Source: Escherichia phage vB_ EcoD_Phleasolo
Direction: 5' to 3' (one strand)
DNA length: 48,301 nt
Sequence record: OL539447.1
The notes beneath the pieces were generated by a model, which did not search any database, was not told where the DNA came from, and saw only the letters and a list, made by a program, of their open reading frames with translations. How positions within the stretch are numbered: the first letter of the stretch is position 1; every line of letters begins with the position of its first letter. A program made the position numbers and the translations under genes. Positions 9,543 through 48,301 of the stretch are shown here, one piece after another.

Positions 9543-9565
9543 TAGCAATTATTGCTTACCACTTG

Positions 9566-34404: not shown

Positions 34405-34632
34405 ATGAAACTTTCTTTAGAAACAAAGTGGGAACTGTTCCAGGGATTAGCAGCAAAGAAGCTGGTTGATAACGGATTTAATCAAGATCCTTTTGAAATG
34501 GCTAGCAGTCTAGATATGAGCTTTGAAGAAGATTACTTGCACGCTGATTTAGAGGATTGGGAAGATATGATGCAAGGTAACATTGAAGAGTTTAAAGAGG
34601 ATGTGCCTGAACTTTTTGCGGAGATTCACTAA
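34405..34632 (+). CDS. hypothetical acidic protein
   Basis: 75 aa from ATG 34405; Asp/Glu-rich. Confidence 0.35.
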   Translation: MKLSLETKWELFQGLAAKKLVDNGFNQDPFEMASSLDMSFEEDYLHADLEDWEDMMQGNIEEFKEDVPELFAEIH

Positions 34633-39367: not shown

Positions 39368-40951
39368 TCACCCCAGCAGTCGTGGATTAATGTAAACCTT
39401 ATCACCAATCAGGCAGGTGTAGTTTTTCTCATCAAGCATCGGAAGTAAATGGTCTTTAATCTTAGCCATTACGCCAGCCTGAGCCTCAAACGGTCTAACC
39501 TTACGTGCCGCTTCATAGAGTGATCGCAACCCCACCACTCCTTTACTGTTCTTTCCTTGCTTAATAAGAATATCAATTAGCTTGTTCATCTCTGCATTAT
39601 CACCAGCGTGACCAGCAGCATTAGCGGAAGACAAGTAAGTCTTACTCAGTTCTTCAAACATAAGAAGAGCTTCTTGCATCGTTTCAAGCCCAATCTCCCT
39701 GGACTTCTGCGGACTCCCTCCGTTTGGATTAAACCAGTTACGGATAGTGTGAAGAACTGCCGCTATCCTGATTACCTGCTTATCCATTTTACCTAACGCT
39801 CCGCGCAACATTGTGTGCGAGTACTTACCGCCATCTGCAAGGTGCGGCTCCATTTCCTGACGAGCACGGTTGAGGTGCTTCATTGCTGAATTACTGACAG
39901 TTAGTTTTACATCTTGCTCGCTCATTATTTCATGAACAAGACGAAAGTAATCTGCCTTTAATCCACCATCAATTGGTTTATATGTTGACTCGCCCTCATC
40001 ATCAACAAACACACGCTCACCAAGGAATGACTTCTCGCGCACAAGAAGGAAACGCTCTGATACACCGATACCGCGAGCGCCAGCATTCATGATTGCGACG
40101 ATTGTTTCATCCTGCGCAATTACAGAAATGCAACCCATAGCAATAAAGCTCATGTTGTTCTCTGCGTTCGCACGCGCGATAGATACGTTACCAGCATCCC
40201 AGGCCTTCAGAACAAGTTCGCTGTTAGTTTTCTTCGAGCCATCACCGTAAGTCATACCAAGAAGTGAGTTAACACTTGTCGCTTCATCAGAAATCACGGA
40301 GAAGTTGCCCTGGCGGTTGTTGATTCGCGCAAGACCTTCCGGGGTAGTATCAGATACCGGAAACACAATGTCGCACAGCTTTTCTAACTTCTCTTCCAAC
40401 TCCTCTTTATCTTCGAATAATCCAGCCATCTCAGATGGTGACTTCTCTTGCTTCATTTCTTTTGCCAGGGCTGACAATTTAGCCATAATCTTCTTACGGT
40501 CACGCTTGCGTAATTCGTTCAATCGCTCAGTCTCAGCAATCATTGGCGCTAGTGCGAGTGAGTTAATAGCTGACTTACCAGTTGATGGAGGCTGACTGGT
40601 TACTACGTACAGCGCGGTAGGCTGCTGAGTTCCATGATACTCAACCGTAAAGCGACCAAGCATTGCTGCTGAAATACACCCAAGGAAGTGCATGTAAGCT
40701 GAAGACTCTGGGAACTGAACTGAGCGTGCGATATTGCTTGATAATTTACCAACGACATCACAATCATTTCCTAGCGAGATGACCGGATATTTGTCACCAG
40801 TTGAATCAATTTCTACCGGAGCCTTCCAGAATGATGCACTCTGTCGATAACCATTGGCATTAATAGCAACTCGCAATGGTGGTAAATTTTCAGCTGCCGC
40901 AACAGACATTACTTGTTCGACTGATAATTTATCTTCGTTAAAATCAAACAT
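39368..40951 (-). CDS. P-loop NTPase (replication/defence-associated, family unresolved)
   Basis: 527 aa; Walker A-like SQPPSTGKS and Walker B-like FSVISDEA; its termini have a paralogous copy at 43257-43928. Confidence 0.45.
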   Translation of the reverse strand: MFDFNEDKLSVEQVMSVAAAENLPPLRVAINANGYRQSASFWKAPVEIDSTGDKYPVISLGNDCDVVGKLSSNIARSVQFPESSAYMHFLGCISAAMLGRFTVEYHGTQQPTALYVVTSQPPSTGKSAINSLALAPMIAETERLNELRKRDRKKIMAKLSALAKEMKQEKSPSEMAGLFEDKEELEEKLEKLCDIVFPVSDTTPEGLARINNRQGNFSVISDEATSVNSLLGMTYGDGSKKTNSELVLKAWDAGNVSIARANAENNMSFIAMGCISVIAQDETIVAIMNAGARGIGVSERFLLVREKSFLGERVFVDDEGESTYKPIDGGLKADYFRLVHEIMSEQDVKLTVSNSAMKHLNRARQEMEPHLADGGKYSHTMLRGALGKMDKQVIRIAAVLHTIRNWFNPNGGSPQKSREIGLETMQEALLMFEELSKTYLSSANAAGHAGDNAEMNKLIDILIKQGKNSKGVVGLRSLYEAARKVRPFEAQAGVMAKIKDHLLPMLDEKNYTCLIGDKVYINPRLLG

Positions 40952-41028
40952 CTTATTCTCTCTATTTGTTATCGATGGGTATAAATATACCCGCCGAAGC
41001 GGGTAGTGTCATTAACAAAAAGTGCTAT

Positions 41029-41382
41029 TTACTTATACTGAGCTTCAAACTTATACATCCCATAACCAACATCATAGCCAACTTCATCATCGCGAGTAAG
41101 TTGCCAGCCGTCACCTTCGTTGTCGTAGATGTAGCCAGCATTACGACCTAATCCAGCGTGCATGGAGACCTGGTAACGCTTACCTTCAGTAAATGATTTC
41201 TTGAGCGGATTGCTGTGGTCAACCCTGGTGCACAGTAGTGTCTTTGTCTTAATGTAGTGACCGTTCATGTCTATATTAACCCATTTGCCATCGACCTTAA
41301 TTTGTTCAACTCCATCTTTTGCTCGAGCTTTAAATAATTTGTTATCGCTGCTTACCCAGTTCTTTGTGATGGTAGTGGCCAT
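41029..41382 (-). CDS. hypothetical protein
   Basis: 117-aa ORF with RBS AAGGAAAG; promoter-like motif upstream. Confidence 0.4.
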   Translation of the reverse strand: MATTITKNWVSSDNKLFKARAKDGVEQIKVDGKWVNIDMNGHYIKTKTLLCTRVDHSNPLKKSFTEGKRYQVSMHAGLGRNAGYIYDNEGDGWQLTRDDEVGYDVGYGMYKFEAQYK

Positions 41383-41454
41383 TATTACTTTCCTTTTATG
41401 CGTGTCATTTCAGTGATTTCAATATACATCATAAGCCCCGAAGGGCTTTAACAA

Positions 41455-41613
41455 TTAGTGCTATTTCTTTGCTGCTTTTGCAATTGCTTTCTGAACAATG
41501 TCGAAACTCTCAATCAAATCTTCTTTAAAGTAGTCACCAACAGGCCAGCCCTTGCCGCTGTACTTTGCTATGGTTTCTAGATCGTAATAGTTCAAATCAG
41601 ATGGCTTAAGCAT
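41455..41613 (-). CDS. small hypothetical protein (52 aa)
   Basis: ATG overlaps the upstream stop (TAAATG); below the ORF-track cutoff. Confidence 0.3.
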
Positions 41614-41853
41614 TTATCTCACCTCATCAAAAGTGGCGATTCCAGGGATGAACATACCAACCTTCCAGCCAGCTATAGCAATCCACCCCGAATCGTGCTT
41701 GTGCGGACGCTCAGCGCCATTAATCACCCATTCGTTCGGGATTGTCTTACCGTTAATGATAAGCGGCTCAGCGTCGTATACAGAGTCTTTTACGAACGGT
41801 GTTAAAACCTTCTTATCCGTGCTTTGGATAACGTTAGTGCAGCGAATCTTCAT
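41614..41853 (-). CDS. hypothetical protein
   Basis: 79-aa ORF coupled to its neighbours. Confidence 0.4.
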   Translation of the reverse strand: MKIRCTNVIQSTDKKVLTPFVKDSVYDAEPLIINGKTIPNEWVINGAERPHKHDSGWIAIAGWKVGMFIPGIATFDEVR

Positions 41854-42107
41854 GCTAATACCTCGATTTCTTCTTCCGTAACGCTGAATTCTTCACCTTC
41901 ATAAACAGCCGTGATGCCATCAATTACAACATCGCGCTTCGCATCAATGAAGTACTCACCTTCAAGTTCAAACACCTCAACCTCTTCACCAACTTCATAG
42001 CCCATCTCAGCCAGGCTTAATGCATCTTCGTCAAACTTGATTTCGTTGTTGATAATAATCGCTTTCATCTGATATCTCCTCGTTGTCGATGTGATAACTA
42101 TAACCAA
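41850..42107 (-). CDS. small highly acidic protein (paralog of 46527-46739)
   Basis: 85 aa, about 25 Asp/Glu versus 5 Lys/Arg; first gene of the leftward unit leaving control region B. Confidence 0.4.
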   Translation of the reverse strand: MVIVITSTTRRYQMKAIIINNEIKFDEDALSLAEMGYEVGEEVEVFELEGEYFIDAKRDVVIDGITAVYEGEEFSVTEEEIEVLA

Positions 42108-42160
42108 TCAGGGCTGAATGGTCATTAGCAAAAAGTGCTATTCGTTCGATTTATGGATTG

Positions 42161-42257
42161 TTGCAGATATTGCAATGATTCACTTCACTATTGCATGTAT
42201 AGCAATATTGCATCGATTGCAATGATTTTCTGGACTGTTGCGAAATTTGCAATGATT
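42161..42257. repeat. iteron-like array: three or four copies of TTGCR-N5-TGCAA, each followed by TGATT
   Basis: Copies at 42161-42175, 42191-42205 (degenerate), 42208-42222 and 42238-42252, in the divergent intergenic region. Confidence 0.6.
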
Positions 42258-42682
42258 GATGGATTGATGGAATGAAGGAGGGCGCATCAACTAGTTGGTT
42301 GGTTTTAGCTTACACGAGGAGCTTTCCTTTATATACGCGTTATGGCTTGTTCAACCGTGTGGAGAAATTGCCATATTTACGCCATCCACGCCAGTTTACG
42401 CGCTGGTTACAAAATAAATCCCTTATATAACAACCTTTTAGATTTATTATTATTATTATTATTATATATGTTATCCCGTAACCATGATTATCCAAGATAT
42501 TGGTGATATTTTTTTGATATTGCGCGGCGCATAAAGATTTAGATAAAGAGATAGGGATGCAAGTGGGGTGGAGAAAATGGCTTAACAGACCATAACGGCA
42601 ATAACAGCCTTGATATGACTAGCGTCAGCATGTAACAATTTAGCATAACGTGCGATTACTGAGTTGAACGTGTAAATAATGC

Positions 42683-42710
42683 TTGCGACATTCACCCATC
42701 ATGGTAAGAT
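42683..42710 (+). promoter_or_regulatory. sigma70-like promoter candidate (TTGCGA-N16-TAAGAT)
   Basis: Hexamers read directly, about 30 nt upstream of the 42742 start. Confidence 0.3.
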
Positions 42711-42741
42711 GCTCTCACACTAAACGAGAGGAGTAGTAAAA

Positions 42742-43257
42742 ATGAGTAATACAATTCGTGAAGCAAACCCGACACTTGGCGACCTGGTGCGCCACCTTGT
42801 TAAGATGGCACTCAATTCAGAGGATGGAAGCGTAACAGTTCCCGTTAAGTTGCTTTACAAGAATCTTTACGGAGAAATTGATAACGGCTATGTAGCAGCC
42901 GACTTTAGACCTGGCGGCAAATATTCACTTCCAAAGCTTAAGGCTTCCTATGTTTCAAATACAGCCAGTAGAATGCAGGAAGTTAAAGACGCAGATAAGC
43001 GCGCAAGGTTCTCTTGTGGAGAGATGGATTATAATGGTGATGAGCATTATTGCGTAAAAATCACAATGGTCGACGGAGCTGTTAAGAATGGAACCCGAGC
43101 TAAGACAAGCAGTCAATTAGAGGAGAAAGCGGTAAGCGAGTTTAAAGCCAGGCTACTTAAGCTTTCCCCTAGCGTTGCAGGCATGAGTGGTGATGAACTT
43201 AAGGGCGCGGTAACTATGATTAACGCATATCAGGAAATGATTAAGGAGACTAAATAA
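42742..43257 (+). CDS. hypothetical protein
   Basis: 171-aa ORF with RBS GAGAGGAG; first gene of the rightward terminal unit. Confidence 0.4.
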   Translation: MSNTIREANPTLGDLVRHLVKMALNSEDGSVTVPVKLLYKNLYGEIDNGYVAADFRPGGKYSLPKLKASYVSNTASRMQEVKDADKRARFSCGEMDYNGDEHYCVKITMVDGAVKNGTRAKTSSQLEEKAVSEFKARLLKLSPSVAGMSGDELKGAVTMINAYQEMIKETK

Positions 43258-43928
43258 TGTTTGATTTCAAAGAGGATAAACTTACTTATGAGCAGGTGTT
43301 AGCAGCAGCAGCGGCAGACAATCTGCCTCCCTTGCGAGTATCAATAATTGCAAATGGTTACCGACAATCTGCAAATCTATGGCCTGAACTGGATAAGGTA
43401 TGGCGAATACAGTAATTTTTACATTGATGAGTGCGTTGAACTATATGAAGGATATGGCGAGCCAACTGCGTGCCATGGAGATGAGCTTGGTATCAGCTTT
43501 CCCGAAGAGCGTGAGGATTGATATATGACAAAGATTTCGAACTAGACACTGGAGCTTTAAAGATTATAGAAATCCTCATTAATCAAGGAATGAGCAGTAA
43601 AGGTGTCGTTGGTCTCGGGTCACTATATAATACAGTAAGGAAAGTTAAACCATTCGAAGGTAAAAGTGAAGTAATTATGGATATCAGAGATGTCATCATC
43701 CCAAACCTTGATAAGCTTGGCTATGCATGCCTAATCGGAGATAAGATTTACATCAACCCTAAACTGCTTGATGGCAACCAGGACTGGACTTACAAGGTTA
43801 AGCTGCTGGAAGATGATTTCAACATCGACGATTGCGAGAAGATTGTTGACGAGATTACTATCAAGGCAATTGATGAGCAAATCGAGAGGCTCAAGCGGAA
43901 GAAGAAGTACCTCCTGACCGGTAAATAG
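43257..43928 (+). pseudogene. internally deleted paralog of the 527-aa P-loop gene (N-terminal 52-aa ORF 43257-43415 plus C-terminal ORF 43518-43928)
   Basis: MFDFKEDKLTYEQVLAAAAADNLPPLRVSIIANGYRQSA matches the N-terminus of the 39368-40951 protein; ...KGVVGLGSLYNTVRKVKPFEG...YACLIGDKIYINPKLL matches its C-terminus; ATPase core absent. Confidence 0.45.
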
Positions 43929-43968
43929 CACGAATTGCTAAACCAGTTCCGCAGGGATGCGTTATAGT
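43926..43968 (+). promoter_or_regulatory. representative phage promoter unit: TAGCA-N5-TGCTA palindrome, 22-nt spacer with CGCA-GGGA-TGCG mini-palindrome, TATAGT -10
   Basis: Same architecture recurs about 16 times across the genome, followed by a conserved CATCGAAACGA leader. Confidence 0.5.
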
Positions 43969-44289
43969 TATTTCATCGAAACGAAATGGTTAATAGAGGA
44001 AGGCAAATGAGTTATTACGAAGTTATCGACACTGGCAATAAATCATTACTTGGCTCAAAGCGCTTTAAATGTACCGGCCAAGGGTTCACTGGATACGGCT
44101 TTGACGAGAAAGATGCCATCCTGGAATGGAAAGAAGCTAAATACATTGGGGAGTTCGACGAATGAAACACATTGGATGGCTGGTAAACGGAACGTTCTAC
44201 TCACTAACCGACGCAGTAAGGGTGGAAAGAATTAGAGTTAACTGCGGACGAAATGTCCAGATTCTTGAAATTTACGCAGAGGAGGAAGT

Positions 44290-44766
44290 ATGCGTAAGGT
44301 ACTGATGATATGCGTCTATGTTGCCATATTCTTATTGGCAAACCTCCTGGTAGCCTCATTTGGTCCAGCGGTAACTCCATTTAACGCACTTTTTCTTATA
44401 GCGGCAGACATGGTATTAAGGGACAGGATTCAGTTTGAGAGCGGTGCGGCATGGTCAATACTAGCATGCTTCCTTGCCGGATTTGCGACTGTATTAATAG
44501 CGCCAGGTTCAGAGATGATTGCTTTAGCATCTGGCCTATCATGCTTACTTGCTGGATCAGCTTCAGCGATTGCATTCAAATTAAAGTCTGGTGGATTTTT
44601 TCAGAAGGCGTTGCCAGCAAACGTAATTGCTGCTGCGGTAGATTCAATTGCATTCCCATTAATTGCTTTCGGGTCTATAATGCCAGGCATAACAGCAGCC
44701 CAGTTTGCCGCTAAAACTATTGGCGCATCAATCATACTATTAATCATAAGGAAATTATCTAAGTGA
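44290..44766 (+). CDS. small polytopic inner-membrane protein (possible precursor transporter; family unverified)
   Basis: 158 aa with 4-5 hydrophobic helices; RBS GGAGG; stop overlaps the next gene's GTG start (GTGA). Confidence 0.4.
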   Translation: MRKVLMICVYVAIFLLANLLVASFGPAVTPFNALFLIAADMVLRDRIQFESGAAWSILACFLAGFATVLIAPGSEMIALASGLSCLLAGSASAIAFKLKSGGFFQKALPANVIAAAVDSIAFPLIAFGSIMPGITAAQFAAKTIGASIILLIIRKLSK

Positions 44767-45593
44767 CAATTCACTTCCATGGCTCCCCTATAACGGGGGG
44801 CAAGGGCGATGCACTTGCTCGGACCGCGTATACAAATGGCGGTGCTTTCGTGTCATTCGCCCACCCGCAGCAGATAGAATTGGCGTTTAAGGTAGCGAAT
44901 GCAGTATGCATAGATAATGGTGCGTTCTCTAAGAAGAATAGCGGCAAAGCTACTGACTGGCATAAATTCTATAATGACTTTTTACCCAGATTTATCGACA
45001 GAGAAAAGTTACGATTCTTTGTTATACCTGATGATATCAGCGGGTGCGACAAAGAGAACGACAGATTAATAAGCGAACTTCCATTACACCTAAAGCACAA
45101 AGGAGCTCCAGTCTGGCATATGCATGAGAGCTTAGACAGGCTAGTCCACCTTGCCAACGAGTGGGAATACATGTGTATAGGCTCGTCAGGCGAGTACTAC
45201 TCTATCCGTTCAGAGAAATGGAAGCGGCGCATGAATGATGCCTTTAACGCTCTAATTCAGAGGGGCTACTCAGCAAAAATTCACGGCCTCAGAATGCTGG
45301 ATGGTCGAGTTCTTGGCAACTACCCACTGGATCAGGCTGACTCAACAAACCTGGCTATTAATGCGCCTAAGTGGATATGCAAATATATAGATATGACCAT
45401 TGAGGCGTGCCGAGCTCAGACTCACAGAGACGCATGGATTTCAACCTCAGATCCGAAGTTTGCACTTGAGCAATTAATCGCAGACGGCGGCACAAGGGAG
45501 CAGATGCTGGCACAGAGATGCGCGATACTCAGGAATTGCATAGAAGCAGTAAGGCCACCATCAAGGGATTCATGGAATAGCACGAATTGCTAA
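44763..45593 (+). CDS. hypothetical enzyme (possible TGT/DpdA-like base-exchange enzyme)
   Basis: 276 aa; VCIDNGAFS resembles the TGT substrate-pocket motif (TDSGGFQ); no CxCxxC zinc site seen; coupled to the upstream membrane protein. Confidence 0.3.
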   Translation: MTIHFHGSPITGGKGDALARTAYTNGGAFVSFAHPQQIELAFKVANAVCIDNGAFSKKNSGKATDWHKFYNDFLPRFIDREKLRFFVIPDDISGCDKENDRLISELPLHLKHKGAPVWHMHESLDRLVHLANEWEYMCIGSSGEYYSIRSEKWKRRMNDAFNALIQRGYSAKIHGLRMLDGRVLGNYPLDQADSTNLAINAPKWICKYIDMTIEACRAQTHRDAWISTSDPKFALEQLIADGGTREQMLAQRCAILRNCIEAVRPPSRDSWNSTNC

Positions 45594-45644
45594 ACAATAA
45601 ATCGGGTAGTCAGCTATGATTACCCTATCAACAACGAAGAGGAA

Positions 45645-45863
45645 ATGATTATGGATACTGGAATTTTACGCATTGACGATGTTCACTTTGACCAGGCTGA
45701 GGTCAGTGTCACCAAGTTAACCTTTCGAGGTAATGTTGTTAGCCTTGACTTCGATCCTGACGACTACGGCGACGGTCAAACACTTATGCAATACTCACCT
45801 GTTGCGGCCCGCAAATTAGCGGCGGCATTAATCCTGGCGGCAGAAGAGGCGGAAGAGCAATGA
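45645..45863 (+). CDS. hypothetical protein
   Basis: 72-aa ORF with RBS GAAGAGGAA. Confidence 0.4.
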   Translation: MIMDTGILRIDDVHFDQAEVSVTKLTFRGNVVSLDFDPDDYGDGQTLMQYSPVAARKLAAALILAAEEAEEQ

Positions 45864-46099
45864 TTACCATTAACCTGTCTTATGAACAAGCTGCAGAGCT
45901 AAAAGATATAATGCAGCACTCACTCATTAACAAGAATTATAGCTGCACAGAGGTGCTATCAGAAGCGATTACACAGATTCAGAACCAACAGATAGCTGAC
46001 GATGATGAACTCCCATGGGACACTGATACCGCCTGGAGCCGATACGAGCAGATTTGCACAGCGCTATCAGGTTGTCAGCTGGCTAGCCAATACAAATGA
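45860..46099 (+). CDS. hypothetical protein
   Basis: 79-aa ORF coupled to the upstream gene. Confidence 0.4.
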   Translation: MITINLSYEQAAELKDIMQHSLINKNYSCTEVLSEAITQIQNQQIADDDELPWDTDTAWSRYEQICTALSGCQLASQYK

Positions 46100-46217
46100 C
46101 AATATACGAACACAAATTCAGTAGCAGGGGTATTGATATGCTCCTGCATTATGTAGACGAGAGATACGCCATGTTGATGCAGAAGACGCATGGCGGCACA
46201 ATAACGAGGATTGAGAT

Positions 46218-46469
46218 ATGAAGATTCATAGCAAGTACAACCGAGAGATTATCGGCCTGGATGGAACGTTAACGACAGTCGATGTATATCGTGTTCTGGA
46301 TGCATTCCAGGTAACAGACCCAGCAATTCAGCACGCAATCAAGAAAATGCTCTGTACTGGGTTGCGAGGCCACAAGGATTACCTCACCGACATTGATGAC
46401 TCAATAGAATCACTTAGGAAAGCAAAGGAGCTTTACGGTCAGAAGAAGATAAATAGCACGAATTGCTAA
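46218..46469 (+). CDS. hypothetical protein
   Basis: 83-aa ORF; ends ...NSTNC via the palindromic motif. Confidence 0.4.
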   Translation: MKIHSKYNREIIGLDGTLTTVDVYRVLDAFQVTDPAIQHAIKKMLCTGLRGHKDYLTDIDDSIESLRKAKELYGQKKINSTNC

Positions 46470-46526
46470 ACATCAATCGCAGGGATGCGTTACTATTACT
46501 AAATCGAAACGAACTAGGAAGAAGAA

Positions 46527-46739
46527 ATGAAAATTAAAATTATCGATGTTGATTATGTTACTGATGACGAGTCTATCACGCTTCGCGAATGCGGCTTCGA
46601 GATTGGCGATGTTGTAGAGGTGTCTGGTAAGTACAACAACGGAGAGCTTTCAATCCAGGCAATCCGTGAGACTGATTTTGTTAATGTTGGCAATGAGGTT
46701 AGTATAAGCGAATTTGAATATGAGGTAGTGGAAGAATGA
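46527..46739 (+). CDS. small highly acidic protein (paralog of 41850-42107)
   Basis: 70 aa, 17 Asp/Glu versus 5 Lys/Arg; similar N-terminus MKIKIIDVDY... to the other copy. Confidence 0.4.
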   Translation: MKIKIIDVDYVTDDESITLRECGFEIGDVVEVSGKYNNGELSIQAIRETDFVNVGNEVSISEFEYEVVEE

Positions 46740-46985
46740 AACCCTCTGAGTGGTGCAAAAAGATGATGGATGAGGCAAAAGACGGCGAGGAGGCGATGAC
46801 ATACTTTGAGTTGATGAATATGTGGCGTGAGCGCGAGGAGAAGAAATCGTGATTTGGATTCACACGTACTATACTGGCAAGTTCAATAGCGTAATGCACA
46901 AGAGGATGTATGACAGCTATGAAGCAGCAAAAGCACAACACGCAGTTCTCGGTGGCGACATTCAATCTTACAAGAAGGCTTAATT

Positions 46986-47225
46986 ATGTTCGGACTTACT
47001 CAACCGCAATTCAATGCAGTGCGCGCCCAGGCTAAGAAGCTAAACGAGGCAGTGGATAAGCTAACAGCCAAGCAGAAGCAGGATAACGATATCATGAAGG
47101 CAGTTATCTGTGAGTTCCATAGCCCGGTCAGTACAATCATCGAGAAGATGCGGTTCGTCTGGGTTGCTGGTTATCTGGCTGGCCGCGTTGGTAAGCGTGA
47201 AGATGGGAGTAATATCTATGATTAA
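46986..47225 (+). CDS. hypothetical protein
   Basis: 79-aa ORF. Confidence 0.4.
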   Translation: MFGLTQPQFNAVRAQAKKLNEAVDKLTAKQKQDNDIMKAVICEFHSPVSTIIEKMRFVWVAGYLAGRVGKREDGSNIYD

Positions 47226-47418
47226 TCCATTCAAGAGTTTCGCTGTTTCTATGGGATGGACTTGCAGGAAGCATGTATTCGTACTCTTTAGGCATATCAA
47301 GTGGTATGAGATTGAGTACTACCGCAAAGGATATAGAAGTAAGCTGGTATGTCGCAATTGCAATAAAATGATTTACTCTAAGATTGATTTTAATGATAAA
47401 TTTGGATTGCCACTATGA
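47218..47418 (+). CDS. hypothetical Cys-containing protein
   Basis: 66 aa from ATG 47218 (track ORF 47110 opens with GTG inside the upstream gene); contains CxxC. Confidence 0.35.
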   Translation: MINPFKSFAVSMGWTCRKHVFVLFRHIKWYEIEYYRKGYRSKLVCRNCNKMIYSKIDFNDKFGLPL

Positions 47419-47675
47419 CTGAACTATCAATATGGTTCCTGGCTGGCATGCTGACTTGGATTTATTTCGTGGTCATGGCTTGACTCAAATGTTTAATATG
47501 GTTAGTATTAAACACGTAGACGGCAATGACCGTAACGCGCATCGCGGAGATGAAAGCCGATAGCCGGGCTGGATAAAGATACGAGGCAACTACCGCATCG
47601 CCAAAAGCAAAGTGTAAGTCGGACTTGCGGAGCATTGTGAAAGCTCGCCGGATTCCGTAACCGGCACCTATTCAA

Positions 47676-47751
47676 GTTCTGTTAGTGTAAGTGGACAGCA
47701 CGAAGACCTCCTAAGTCTTAGGTACTGGTTCAAGTCCAGTGCGGAACGCCA
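47676..47751 (+). tRNA. tRNA-Arg (anticodon CCT)
   Basis: Hand-folded cloverleaf: acceptor GTTCTGT/GCGGAAC (two G-U pairs), D stem GTGT/GCAC with GG loop, anticodon stem AAGAC/GTCTT with loop CT-CCT-AA, T arm ACTGG-TTCAAGT-CCAGT, encoded CCA. Confidence 0.7.
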
Positions 47752-47756
47752 AATAT

Positions 47757-47858
47757 GCTCACGTTGCTAATGTTGGCCTAAGGGTGGAGCTTATACCTCC
47801 ATAAAGCAATCACCAGATAAGTGATGTAACGCAGGTTCGATTCCTGCCGTGAGCACCA
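47757..47858 (+). tRNA. tRNA-like element, non-canonical length (identity unresolved)
   Basis: Canonical T arm GCAGG-TTCGATT-CCTGC, 3' CGTGAGC-A-CCA and a perfect complementary GCTCACG 102 nt upstream; two internal 5-bp hairpins; no clean D arm. Confidence 0.3.
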
Positions 47859-47874
47859 ATCATGGAGCATCCTA

Positions 47875-48060
47875 GTGAATAACTACGAAGTCCGTTTAAC
47901 TTCCCGCCTAATGGGCAGGCAATGCAAATCTTGCCAGCAATCCTACGAAGGTAGGTTCCCTGCTAACAGCCCTGAAGAAGCAGTTGCAGCCGCAAAGGCA
48001 GCATTTAAGATTGACCTGACGGTTCACAAAGTCAGCGTTGATAAAGTATCCCTCGTTTGA
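47875..48060 (+). CDS. hypothetical protein
   Basis: 61-aa ORF with GGAG RBS; contains CxxC; followed by a terminator. Confidence 0.4.
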   Translation: MNNYEVRLTSRLMGRQCKSCQQSYEGRFPANSPEEAVAAAKAAFKIDLTVHKVSVDKVSLV

Positions 48061-48088
48061 GATTGGTAATCTCGCAATGTAGTGTTTC

Positions 48089-48112
48089 GCCCTCCTCGTG
48101 AGGGCTTTTTTT
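48089..48112 (+). terminator. rho-independent terminator
   Basis: GCCCTC-CTCGT-GAGGGC hairpin plus T7 run. Confidence 0.65.
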
Positions 48113-48301
48113 CGTCTCTACTCATGGTACAATGACTTTTAAAACAGGAGGAATGACAATGACAGGCTATCAACCAAAACCACACGATGGCGAAATAAAA
48201 CCACCGCCAAGGAGACCTTGATGATTGAGTCTATAGCATCAATATTTGGGGTTATTGTCGGATTTACTATAATTTACAACATCTGGAAGATTAGGAGTTA
48301 A

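Follow-up and report, generated by a model that had tools for sequence, protein, structure and literature searches.

Two paralogous, strongly acidic phage proteins with predicted SH3-like folds behind a conserved promoter unit in a T1-like genome

The 48,301-nucleotide stretch of DNA analysed here (the window) encodes two small, strongly acidic proteins, referred to below as A and B, that are true paralogs, two diverged copies of the family PHROG 5684. In each case the gene is the first of its transcription unit and follows a conserved promoter unit common to both. The models obtained for them indicate stand-alone SH3-like barrels of about 70 residues that would be coated with Asp and Glu. By analogy with a bacterial antirepressor we propose, with a probability of roughly 35%, that A and B may be accessory stoichiometric protein binders that capture the basic nucleic-acid-binding surface of a target. 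Both genes were already in the databases, annotated as hypothetical and assigned to a PHROG; they are not new in themselves. What is added here is a corrected start for A, the paralogy, the prediction of an SH3-like fold and the conserved promoter-first-cistron arrangement, together with a parallel to Gp54 of Escherichia phage Bas11 and indirect evidence against classical anti-restriction.

Results

Genome setting

Positions 41000–47300 of the window (6.3 kb) were found by BLAST to be identical to Klebsiella phage vB_KpnD_Opt-79 (OL539453; Drexlerviridae, Rogunavirinae), and the same stretch matches the Escherichia phages Sadiya and Opt-719 at identity as well. The 9.6 kb that were compared base by base are likewise identical to vB_KpnD_Opt-79, the two genomes differing in a start shifted by 616 nt and in one relocated 129-nt block. 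Because of this identity over the compared stretches, the window is a complete T1-like phage genome of the Rogunavirinae. An Rfam scan of 41000–48301 returned tRNAs and nothing else. All ten of the neighbouring genes that were annotated fall into PHROGs of unknown function, so that the context supplies no functional anchor for A or B, and a search of the literature on the function of the PHROG 5684 family, the annotation of SECphi27 gp43 and the timing of Drexlerviridae transcription found only a genome announcement.

Paralogy and distribution of the family

The original prediction held the two proteins to be paralogs and proposed a pairwise alignment as a check. This claim was borne out: A and B share 26 identities over 73 positions (36%) with an E-value of 2e-6 in BLASTP, and both are full-length matches to phrog_5684, A with an E-value of 2e-28 (residues 1–72 on profile positions 1–74 of 75) and B with an E-value of 2.8e-25 (residues 1–70 on profile positions 1–75). 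The residues invariant in the joint alignment are M1, K2, I5, L19, G23 and E67, and A is distinguished from B by a 5-residue insertion and about 5 extra negative charges. Of all six-frame ORFs in the window, a family HMM recovered A and B only (E-values of 1e-35 and 5e-28), with the next best ORF at 0.34. Two other genes that were considered as extra paralogs, one at 34405–34632 encoding a third very acidic protein and the other an acidic 72-residue first gene at 45645–45863, were ruled out by this search together with the PHROG annotation.

In a word-indexed search of 5.8 billion proteins 34 clusters were obtained for A and 41 for B, and the informative contigs were phage genomes of 45–52 kb. 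An exhaustive profile search of 1.84 billion representatives gave only 22 clusters at E ≤ 1e-3; its long hits were few and consisted of repeat proteins, one of them a multi-SH3_15 protein, and no informative domain fusions were found among them. PHROG 5684 is a narrow family that is restricted to Drexlerviridae. Within a phage genome collection the B type is present in 463 records, to be compared with about 857 Drexlerviridae records defined by TerL (54%). The A type is found in at least 14 records of the collection, a small subset of the Rogunavirinae, and this count is a lower bound as the low-complexity filter masks the C-terminus of A. Phage AHP42 has kept A and carries other genes in the slot of B. 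Judged from these counts the family is accessory, with about half of the Drexlerviridae carrying the B type and few carrying two copies, a distribution typical of host-interaction genes. The dN/dS ratios across the A and B comparisons lie between 0.08 and 0.21 (0.16–0.19 for A against its orthologues in Sf12 and AHP42, 0.08–0.21 for B), so that both are expressed proteins under selection; their length is conserved as well. In some records family members bear the wrong database names ‘portal protein’ or ‘methyltransferase type 11’.

Gene A and the leftward unit

Gene A (41850–42068, minus strand; OPT79_61 of Opt-79) encodes the 72-residue acidic protein with a predicted SH3-like fold that represents the A type of PHROG 5684. 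It had originally been described as an 85-residue gene spanning 41850–42107, and this assignment has to be corrected. The TTG at 42107 from which the longer reading starts is located 3 nt upstream of the −10 hexamer TATAGT (42102–42097), inside the promoter of the gene itself and hence outside the mRNA, so the 85-residue ORF is not the gene. The start is the ATG at 42068, which is preceded by the ribosome-binding site GAGGAG at 42076–42081, and the annotation of Opt-79 also gives the protein 72 residues. The placement of A as the first ORF leftward of a control region was right, since a 634-nt divergent intergenic region (42108–42741) lies directly upstream; this region adjoins gene A and contains three operator-like TTGCAATGATT repeats.

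The promoter unit and leader of gene A (42076–42140, minus strand) were delineated by alignment of all units, a promoter scan and motif enrichment. They comprise the palindrome TAGCAC-TTTT-TGCTA at 42126–42140 and the −10-like hexamer TATAGT at 42097–42102, followed by a conserved ATCGACAACGA leader, and the promoter scan upstream of the gene returned ATGACC-17-TATAGT. The unit transcribed leftward from 42108–42741 consists of A, a 79-residue gene and a 50-residue gene, after which there is a GC hairpin. The 79-residue gene (41614–41853, minus strand) was identified from the ORF list, its sequence and a match to phrog_4448, a family of unknown function, and its ATG overlaps the stop codon of A (ATGA), so that it is translationally coupled to A. 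The third gene (41461–41613, minus strand) was taken from the ORF list. The same gene trio is present in Sf12 (gp1–gp3) and in AHP42.

Gene B and the rightward unit

For gene B (46527–46739, plus strand; OPT79_75) the coordinates and the length of 70 residues originally given are correct, and the product is an acidic protein with a predicted SH3-like fold that represents the B type of PHROG 5684. The position claimed for it, just after a promoter unit, was confirmed by the alignment of all units and by motif enrichment, which place the unit and leader at 46452–46521 (plus strand). The palindrome TAGCACGAATTGCTA occupies 46454–46468 and the −10-like TACTAT 46491–46496, and the leader ATCGAAACGAA is accompanied by the ribosome-binding site AGGAAG at 46516–46521. 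The following gene (46736–46852, plus strand), identified from the ORF list, its sequence and a PHROG match, encodes 38 residues and belongs to phrog_1312, also of unknown function; its ATG overlaps the stop codon of B (ATGA), so that it too is translationally coupled to the gene before it. Gene B heads a run of tiny genes leading toward a tRNA-Arg gene and the small terminase subunit gene, the latter located about 1.6 kb downstream of B.

A promoter unit shared with other operons

The consensus of the aligned units reads AATAGCAC-N4-TG(C/T)TAAA, about 19–20 nt, a TATAGT-like hexamer, a TAC..CATCGAAACGA leader, a ribosome-binding site and ATG. Its palindromic core TAGCA-N5-TGCTA occurs 17 times in the genome when up to one mismatch is allowed, against 2.5 occurrences expected, and about 13 of the 17 are full units that head operons. 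Behind them are, among others, the gene that follows the large terminase, recombination genes, the DUF3987 helicase and lysis genes. The unit is thus a general mark of phage operons, and its presence ahead of the portal, recombination and lysis operons means that it does not show A and B to be early. In Bas11 (Tempevirinae), SECphi27 (Warwickvirus) and XT34 (Nouzillyvirus) the B-type gene is likewise immediately preceded by this unit, and the place of first cistron behind it is kept in four subfamilies. The promoter unit is ancient and has stayed associated with PHROG 5684 genes.

Acidity of A and B

Protein A contains 22 Asp and Glu and 4 Lys and Arg in 72 residues, for a net charge of about −18, and B contains 18 Asp and Glu and 5 Lys and Arg in 70 residues, for a net charge of about −13. 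The original prediction was correct in describing both as strongly acidic and in counting five basic residues in B, but its other counts were off: A has 22 acidic residues instead of about 25 and 4 basic residues instead of 5, and B has 18 acidic residues instead of 17. The pI calculation that it had proposed gave 4.05 for both proteins. Of 69 annotated CDSs with a clean translation at a fixed coordinate offset, A ranks first in net negative charge per residue (0.250) and B third (0.186), compared with a genome mean of 0.014 and a standard deviation of 0.064. The acidity of these two proteins is not due to chance.

All 50 aligned members of the family are acidic, with net charges between −3 and −18 and a median of −11.5, the A types being the most extreme. 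Some members are weakly acidic (net −3 to −5), which indicates that extreme charge is not indispensable. Acidic residues are conserved in columns 13–15, 21, 28, 31, 48, 64 and 66 (B numbering), and in the same 50-member alignment L19 and G23 are invariant and K2, G27, G39 and G55 nearly so.

Predicted fold

Structure prediction, which had also been proposed as a check, was carried out by AlphaFold2 with the family alignment and returned confident all-β SH3-like barrels for both proteins (pLDDT 96.2 and pTM 0.82 for A; pLDDT 93.9 and pTM 0.78 for B). The models feature a small β-barrel with SH3 strand order and a long RT-like loop, and at the level of fold they would belong to the SH3 superfamily. 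Consistent with this, the best PDB match of the family profile is a weak one to the RT-loop/strand-b region of the p47phox SH3 domain (E-value of 0.03), and the profile also recovers a protein built of SH3_15 repeats. Neither the two proteins nor the family profile had a match above threshold in Pfam, NCBIfam or PDB sequences, no catalytic motif was found in A or B, and a fold search of BFVD returned uncharacterised Drexlerviridae proteins only.

Two other assignments were considered and rejected. A PDB match of B to BurrH (E-value of 2e-20) is an artefact in which weak matches are summed over a repeat protein, with no single stretch passing. The motif ‘LG..GD.VEV’ raised the possibility of an AbrB/MazE-like swapped hairpin, but there is no match to Pfam SpoVT/AbrB and the models are confident monomeric SH3-like barrels.

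Discussion

A possible mode of action

We favour a reading of A and B as stoichiometric protein binders, neither enzymes nor DNA binders. Neither protein has a catalytic motif or a Pfam or NCBIfam match, and with net charges of −13 to −18 they are implausible as direct binders of nucleic acid. In the proposed mechanism, the acidic RT-loop-like segment (columns 13–15, 21, 28 and 31, B numbering), together with the invariant or conserved Leu 19, Gly 23, aromatic residue at 24 and Gly 27, would form a negatively charged docking face, the clustering of the conserved acidic residues on a single face being expected from SH3 topology. With this face the protein would seize a helix or groove of the target that is basic and binds nucleic acid, and so compete with DNA or RNA in the manner of CarS. 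The two paralogs, at 36% identity, have diverged and probably act on different targets, and the target would most likely be a host factor or a defence protein other than the classical type I–III restriction enzymes. Counted against the binder reading were that the canonical SH3 ligand-site aromatics are not conserved, that part of the family is only weakly acidic and that the neighbouring genes give no functional anchor. A more specific version, in which A and B would be the first phage SH3-fold nucleic-acid mimics, directed against two different host proteins that bind DNA or RNA and serve in defence or in the nucleoid, seems rather improbable at present. Taken with Gp54 of Bas11, which is unrelated but similarly folded and lies in the same genomic slot, it would imply that T1-like phages deploy a diversified toolkit of tiny SH3-like barrels at operon heads and that sensors such as CapRel have evolved to detect it.

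Alternative explanations

The idea that A and B are DNA mimics in the style of Ocr and ArdA, blocking restriction-modification enzymes of type I or another type at an early stage of infection, draws on the charge density of A, which is the same as in T7 Ocr (34 acidic and 6 basic among 116 residues, against 22 and 4 among 72), on the small, promoter-proximal and accessory nature of the genes, on the conservation of acidity across the family (net −3 to −18) and on the precedent of CarS, a known acidic SH3-like mimic of operator DNA (PMC2926617). Sites for EcoBI, EcoRI, EcoRV and EcoP1 are not unusually few or many in the genome, and the phage would therefore benefit from such a protein. However, the family has no link in sequence or in detail of fold to Ocr, ArdA, KlcA or other solved mimics, the shared promoter unit does not mark A and B as early, and a 70-residue globular β-barrel such as the one predicted could not span the bent-DNA footprint of about 24 bp given for Ocr (PMC2806950). 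Restriction data point the same way: Bas11 has 7 EcoKI sites and carries a B-type orthologue, yet it is restricted by EcoKI, EcoRI, EcoRV and EcoP1, with plating efficiencies of 4e-6 to 8e-5 for EcoKI, around 1e-6 for either EcoRI or EcoRV and around 4e-3 for EcoP1 (BASEL S1 data), and most Drexlerviridae are reported to be very sensitive to restriction-modification systems, type I included (PMC8594841). The restriction of Bas11 despite its orthologue weakens the specific anti-restriction reading and makes a general Ocr-like function for the PHROG 5684 family unlikely. These data bear on the B type, in another phage; an anti-restriction role confined to the rarer and more acidic A type is still compatible with them. 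Taken as a whole, we consider Ocr-style mimicry by A and B very improbable.

The proteins could instead modulate the programme of the phage itself, acting as antirepressors or adaptors on a phage DNA-binding regulator or replication protein and thereby timing expression or replication; the factor that recognises the TAGCAC-N4-TGCTA palindrome of the roughly 13 units, or one that recognises the TTGCAATGATT repeats next to A, would be an example of such a target. CarS follows the same logic in an acidic SH3-like protein, A adjoins the 634-nt control region with its three repeats, both genes lie behind a palindrome-bearing promoter, the phage encodes putative transcriptional regulators, and the B type, found in 54% of the genomes of the family, is frequent and fixed in position. 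Nevertheless about half of the Drexlerviridae are devoid of any copy and only few have two, which is unexpected for a core regulator because the promoter unit itself is present across several subfamilies, and we regard a regulatory role of this kind as unlikely. Less probable again is that A and B have no inhibitory role at all, being dispensable passengers, helpers of assembly or packaging, or mainly molecules that host immunity senses, as it does Gp54. In keeping with such a role, Bas11 can do without Gp54, a protein known for nothing but triggering CapRelSJ46, all relatives have B within the cluster of small genes ahead of terS, and none of the neighbouring genes belongs to a PHROG of known function. 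Purifying selection (dN/dS 0.08–0.21) and the retention of two diverged copies nonetheless speak for an advantage that the phage derives from them, recognition by host immunity is a cost and not a function, and no link between the family and virion or terminase proteins emerged.

Implications

The Drexlerviridae are abundant coliphages and Klebsiella phages used in therapy cocktails, and functions have been assigned to hardly any of the small accessory genes that they carry. If A and B are SH3-fold competitive inhibitors, they would form a new structural class among the few phage mimic proteins and would serve as handles for finding the host or defence proteins that they target; they would also help to account for the sensing, by bacterial immunity, of small SH3-like barrels such as Gp54 of Bas11 that occupy this place in the operon. 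Should A and B turn out to be inert or regulatory, the annotation of the family has still been cleaned up, as neither ‘portal protein’ nor ‘methyltransferase type 11’ is correct. The pair is a lead rather than a discovery.

Comparison with known systems

In canonical SH3 domains of the eukaryotic type the consensus ligand-site aromatics are the Tyr of ALYDY, WW and SNY. Proteins A and B have in common with these domains the predicted barrel topology and the RT-loop/strand-b motif ..DED.LSL..G..VEV....G.. but they fall below every Pfam SH3 threshold (SH3_1, SH3_9 and relatives) and differ by a 4-residue insertion before strand b and an extra C-terminal hairpin. The Tyr, Trp and Pro of the canonical ligand site are not conserved in the family, and the columns of the WW dipeptide, occupied by Leu-Ser in B and Tyr-Phe in A, are not conserved either.

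Ocr is an early gene product of T7. Ocr (gp0.3) and ArdA share small size and strong acidity with A and B; Ocr and ArdA act by occupying DNA-binding sites. Both form long, largely helical dimers shaped like an extended piece of B-DNA, whereas the models of A and B are compact all-β barrels; the DNA mimicked by the elongated helical dimer of Ocr is a bent footprint of roughly 24 bp (PMC2806950). Searches of Pfam, NCBIfam and PDB sequences detected no similarity of A or B to Ocr, ArdA, KlcA or other solved DNA mimics.

Gp54 of Bas11 (PDB 9AXB; Pfam PF25180) is a non-essential Drexlerviridae protein of 66 residues that forms a six-stranded SH3-like barrel and directly binds and activates the CapRelSJ46 defence (PMC11578894). 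It is a small SH3-like barrel with a long loop after strand 1 and in this may resemble the predicted folds of A and B. Its gene is the second of the leftward operon of Bas11, which starts at a divergent control region and ends at the DUF3987 helicase, and gene A is the first gene in the syntenic slot. Gp54 is only mildly acidic (10 acidic and 7 basic residues, counted by eye) whereas A and B are strongly so. Homology was rejected, as hhalign gave the family a probability of 0.13% against Gp54 and 0.30% against a 12-sequence Gp54 alignment and there was no match to PF25180. Bas11 also encodes a B-type gene, gp80, that is 49% identical to B, so the two families coexist in one phage. The likeness of Gp54 to A and B is one of fold and position only.

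CarS1 (PDB 2KSS) was not recovered by A, B or the family profile from PDB sequences at E-values up to 10, and CarS is not among the best structural matches of the A and B models. The CarS antirepressor of Myxococcus xanthus is small, acidic and of SH3 topology, and a pocket lined with acidic residues captures the DNA-recognition helix of the repressor, so that the protein is a mimic of operator DNA (PMC2926617). CarS is bacterial whereas A and B are phage proteins, and the mechanism suggested for the latter is modelled on it. A and B agree with CarS in their predicted fold, and in the family alignment the conserved acidic columns 13–15, 21 and 28 flank the conserved L19, F/Y24 and V30 in the sequence.

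Relocated sequence block

When 9.6 kb was compared base by base with the near-identical Klebsiella phage vB_KpnD_Opt-79 (Opt-79, OL539453), the only difference was a single 129-nt block, which lies at 43400-43528 in the window and between window coordinates 46230 and 46231 in Opt-79, where it makes up most of a 44-aa gene. Read in one frame, the block is an exact ATG...TGA open reading frame, and its move is a clean cut-and-paste, be its origin a natural rearrangement, an assembly artefact or otherwise. BLAST piece counts suggest that the near-identical Escherichia phages Sadiya and Opt-719 are arranged as Opt-79 is.

In the window the block sits inside a 180-aa gene starting at 43257 and leaves it in two pieces, 43257-43415 and 43518-43928. 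This gene (43257-43928, (+)), which follows that of the DUF7174 protein, is a miniature copy of the DUF3987 helicase encoded divergently at 39368-40951 (-). It retains only the N-terminal ~50 residues (64% identical) and the C-terminal ~70 residues (60% identical) of the helicase; the ATPase core is missing, and there is an extra, unrelated acidic tail. At junction 46230/46231, from which the block is absent in the window, MKIH is joined in frame to SKYN..., giving an 83-aa ORF (46218-46469, (+)) that aligns only with the C-terminal third of the ~240-aa P-loop ATPase families phrog_2452 and phrog_17613. The ORF, annotated in Opt-79 as 'putative terminase ATPase subunit', is a remnant or split gene.

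Other sequence features

A second tRNA-like element (47757-47858, (+); Rfam tRNA, 42.7 bits) immediately follows tRNA-Arg(CCT) at 47676-47751. ARAGORN predicts a tRNA here whose anticodon loop is abnormal and whose identity is undetermined; the element carries no annotation in Opt-79. Over the whole window GATC is strongly depleted, with 39 sites against ~164 expected under a first-order Markov model, and there is an excess of CCWGG and of GATATC. The otherwise identical Opt-79 record contains no methyltransferase annotation.

The 634-nt divergent control region (intergenic region 42108-42741) adjoining gene A, one of two genes for acidic SH3-like paralogs, contains an (AAT)n run. In it there are also three copies of a ~31-nt repeat (42150-42257), each ending TTGCAATGATT, which look iteron- or operator-like.

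Promoter units and first cistrons

The conserved, oriented promoter unit reads AATAGCAC-N4-TG(C/T)TAAA, ~19-20 nt, TATAGT, TAC..CATCGAAACGA. Some 13 copies head operons of all functional classes in the window, with sites at 2183, 23378(-), 26194, 31599, 33995, 35537, 37090, 41013(-), 42126(-), 43926, 45578 and 46454 and variants at 9543, 36825 and 41449; the motif was found 17 times against 2.5 expected. A good -35 hexamer is absent, and the palindrome is centred at about -42, the position expected for an activator site.

The paralogs encoded by genes A and B belong to PHROG 5684. Public databases give members of this family misleading names: 'portal protein' in Sadiya and as a name in UniRef, 'methyltransferase type 11' for SECphi27 gp43, JLBYU41 and XY3, and 'putative methyltransferase' in ETEP102. 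Besides the two paralogs there is one more small, very acidic protein (34405-34632, (+); 75 aa, 20 Asp+Glu versus 5 Lys+Arg), which is second in acidity among the 69 CDSs scored and unrelated to either of them.

The promoter unit preceding that of gene B is headed by another acidic first cistron, the 72-aa phrog_13316 gene (45645-45863, (+)). The conserved promoter unit as such is also kept in other Drexlerviridae subfamilies (Bas11, SECphi27 and XT34), and first-cistron arrangements were compared between the window (45645-46099, (+)) and the Bas11/SECphi27 loci (L003, 47726-48171; L002, 3001-3473). In Bas11 and SECphi27 a 'MITINLS...' gene follows the B-type gene, whereas its homologue in the window (45860-46099) lies behind the phrog_13316 gene, one promoter unit earlier; first cistrons have thus been shuffled as modules.
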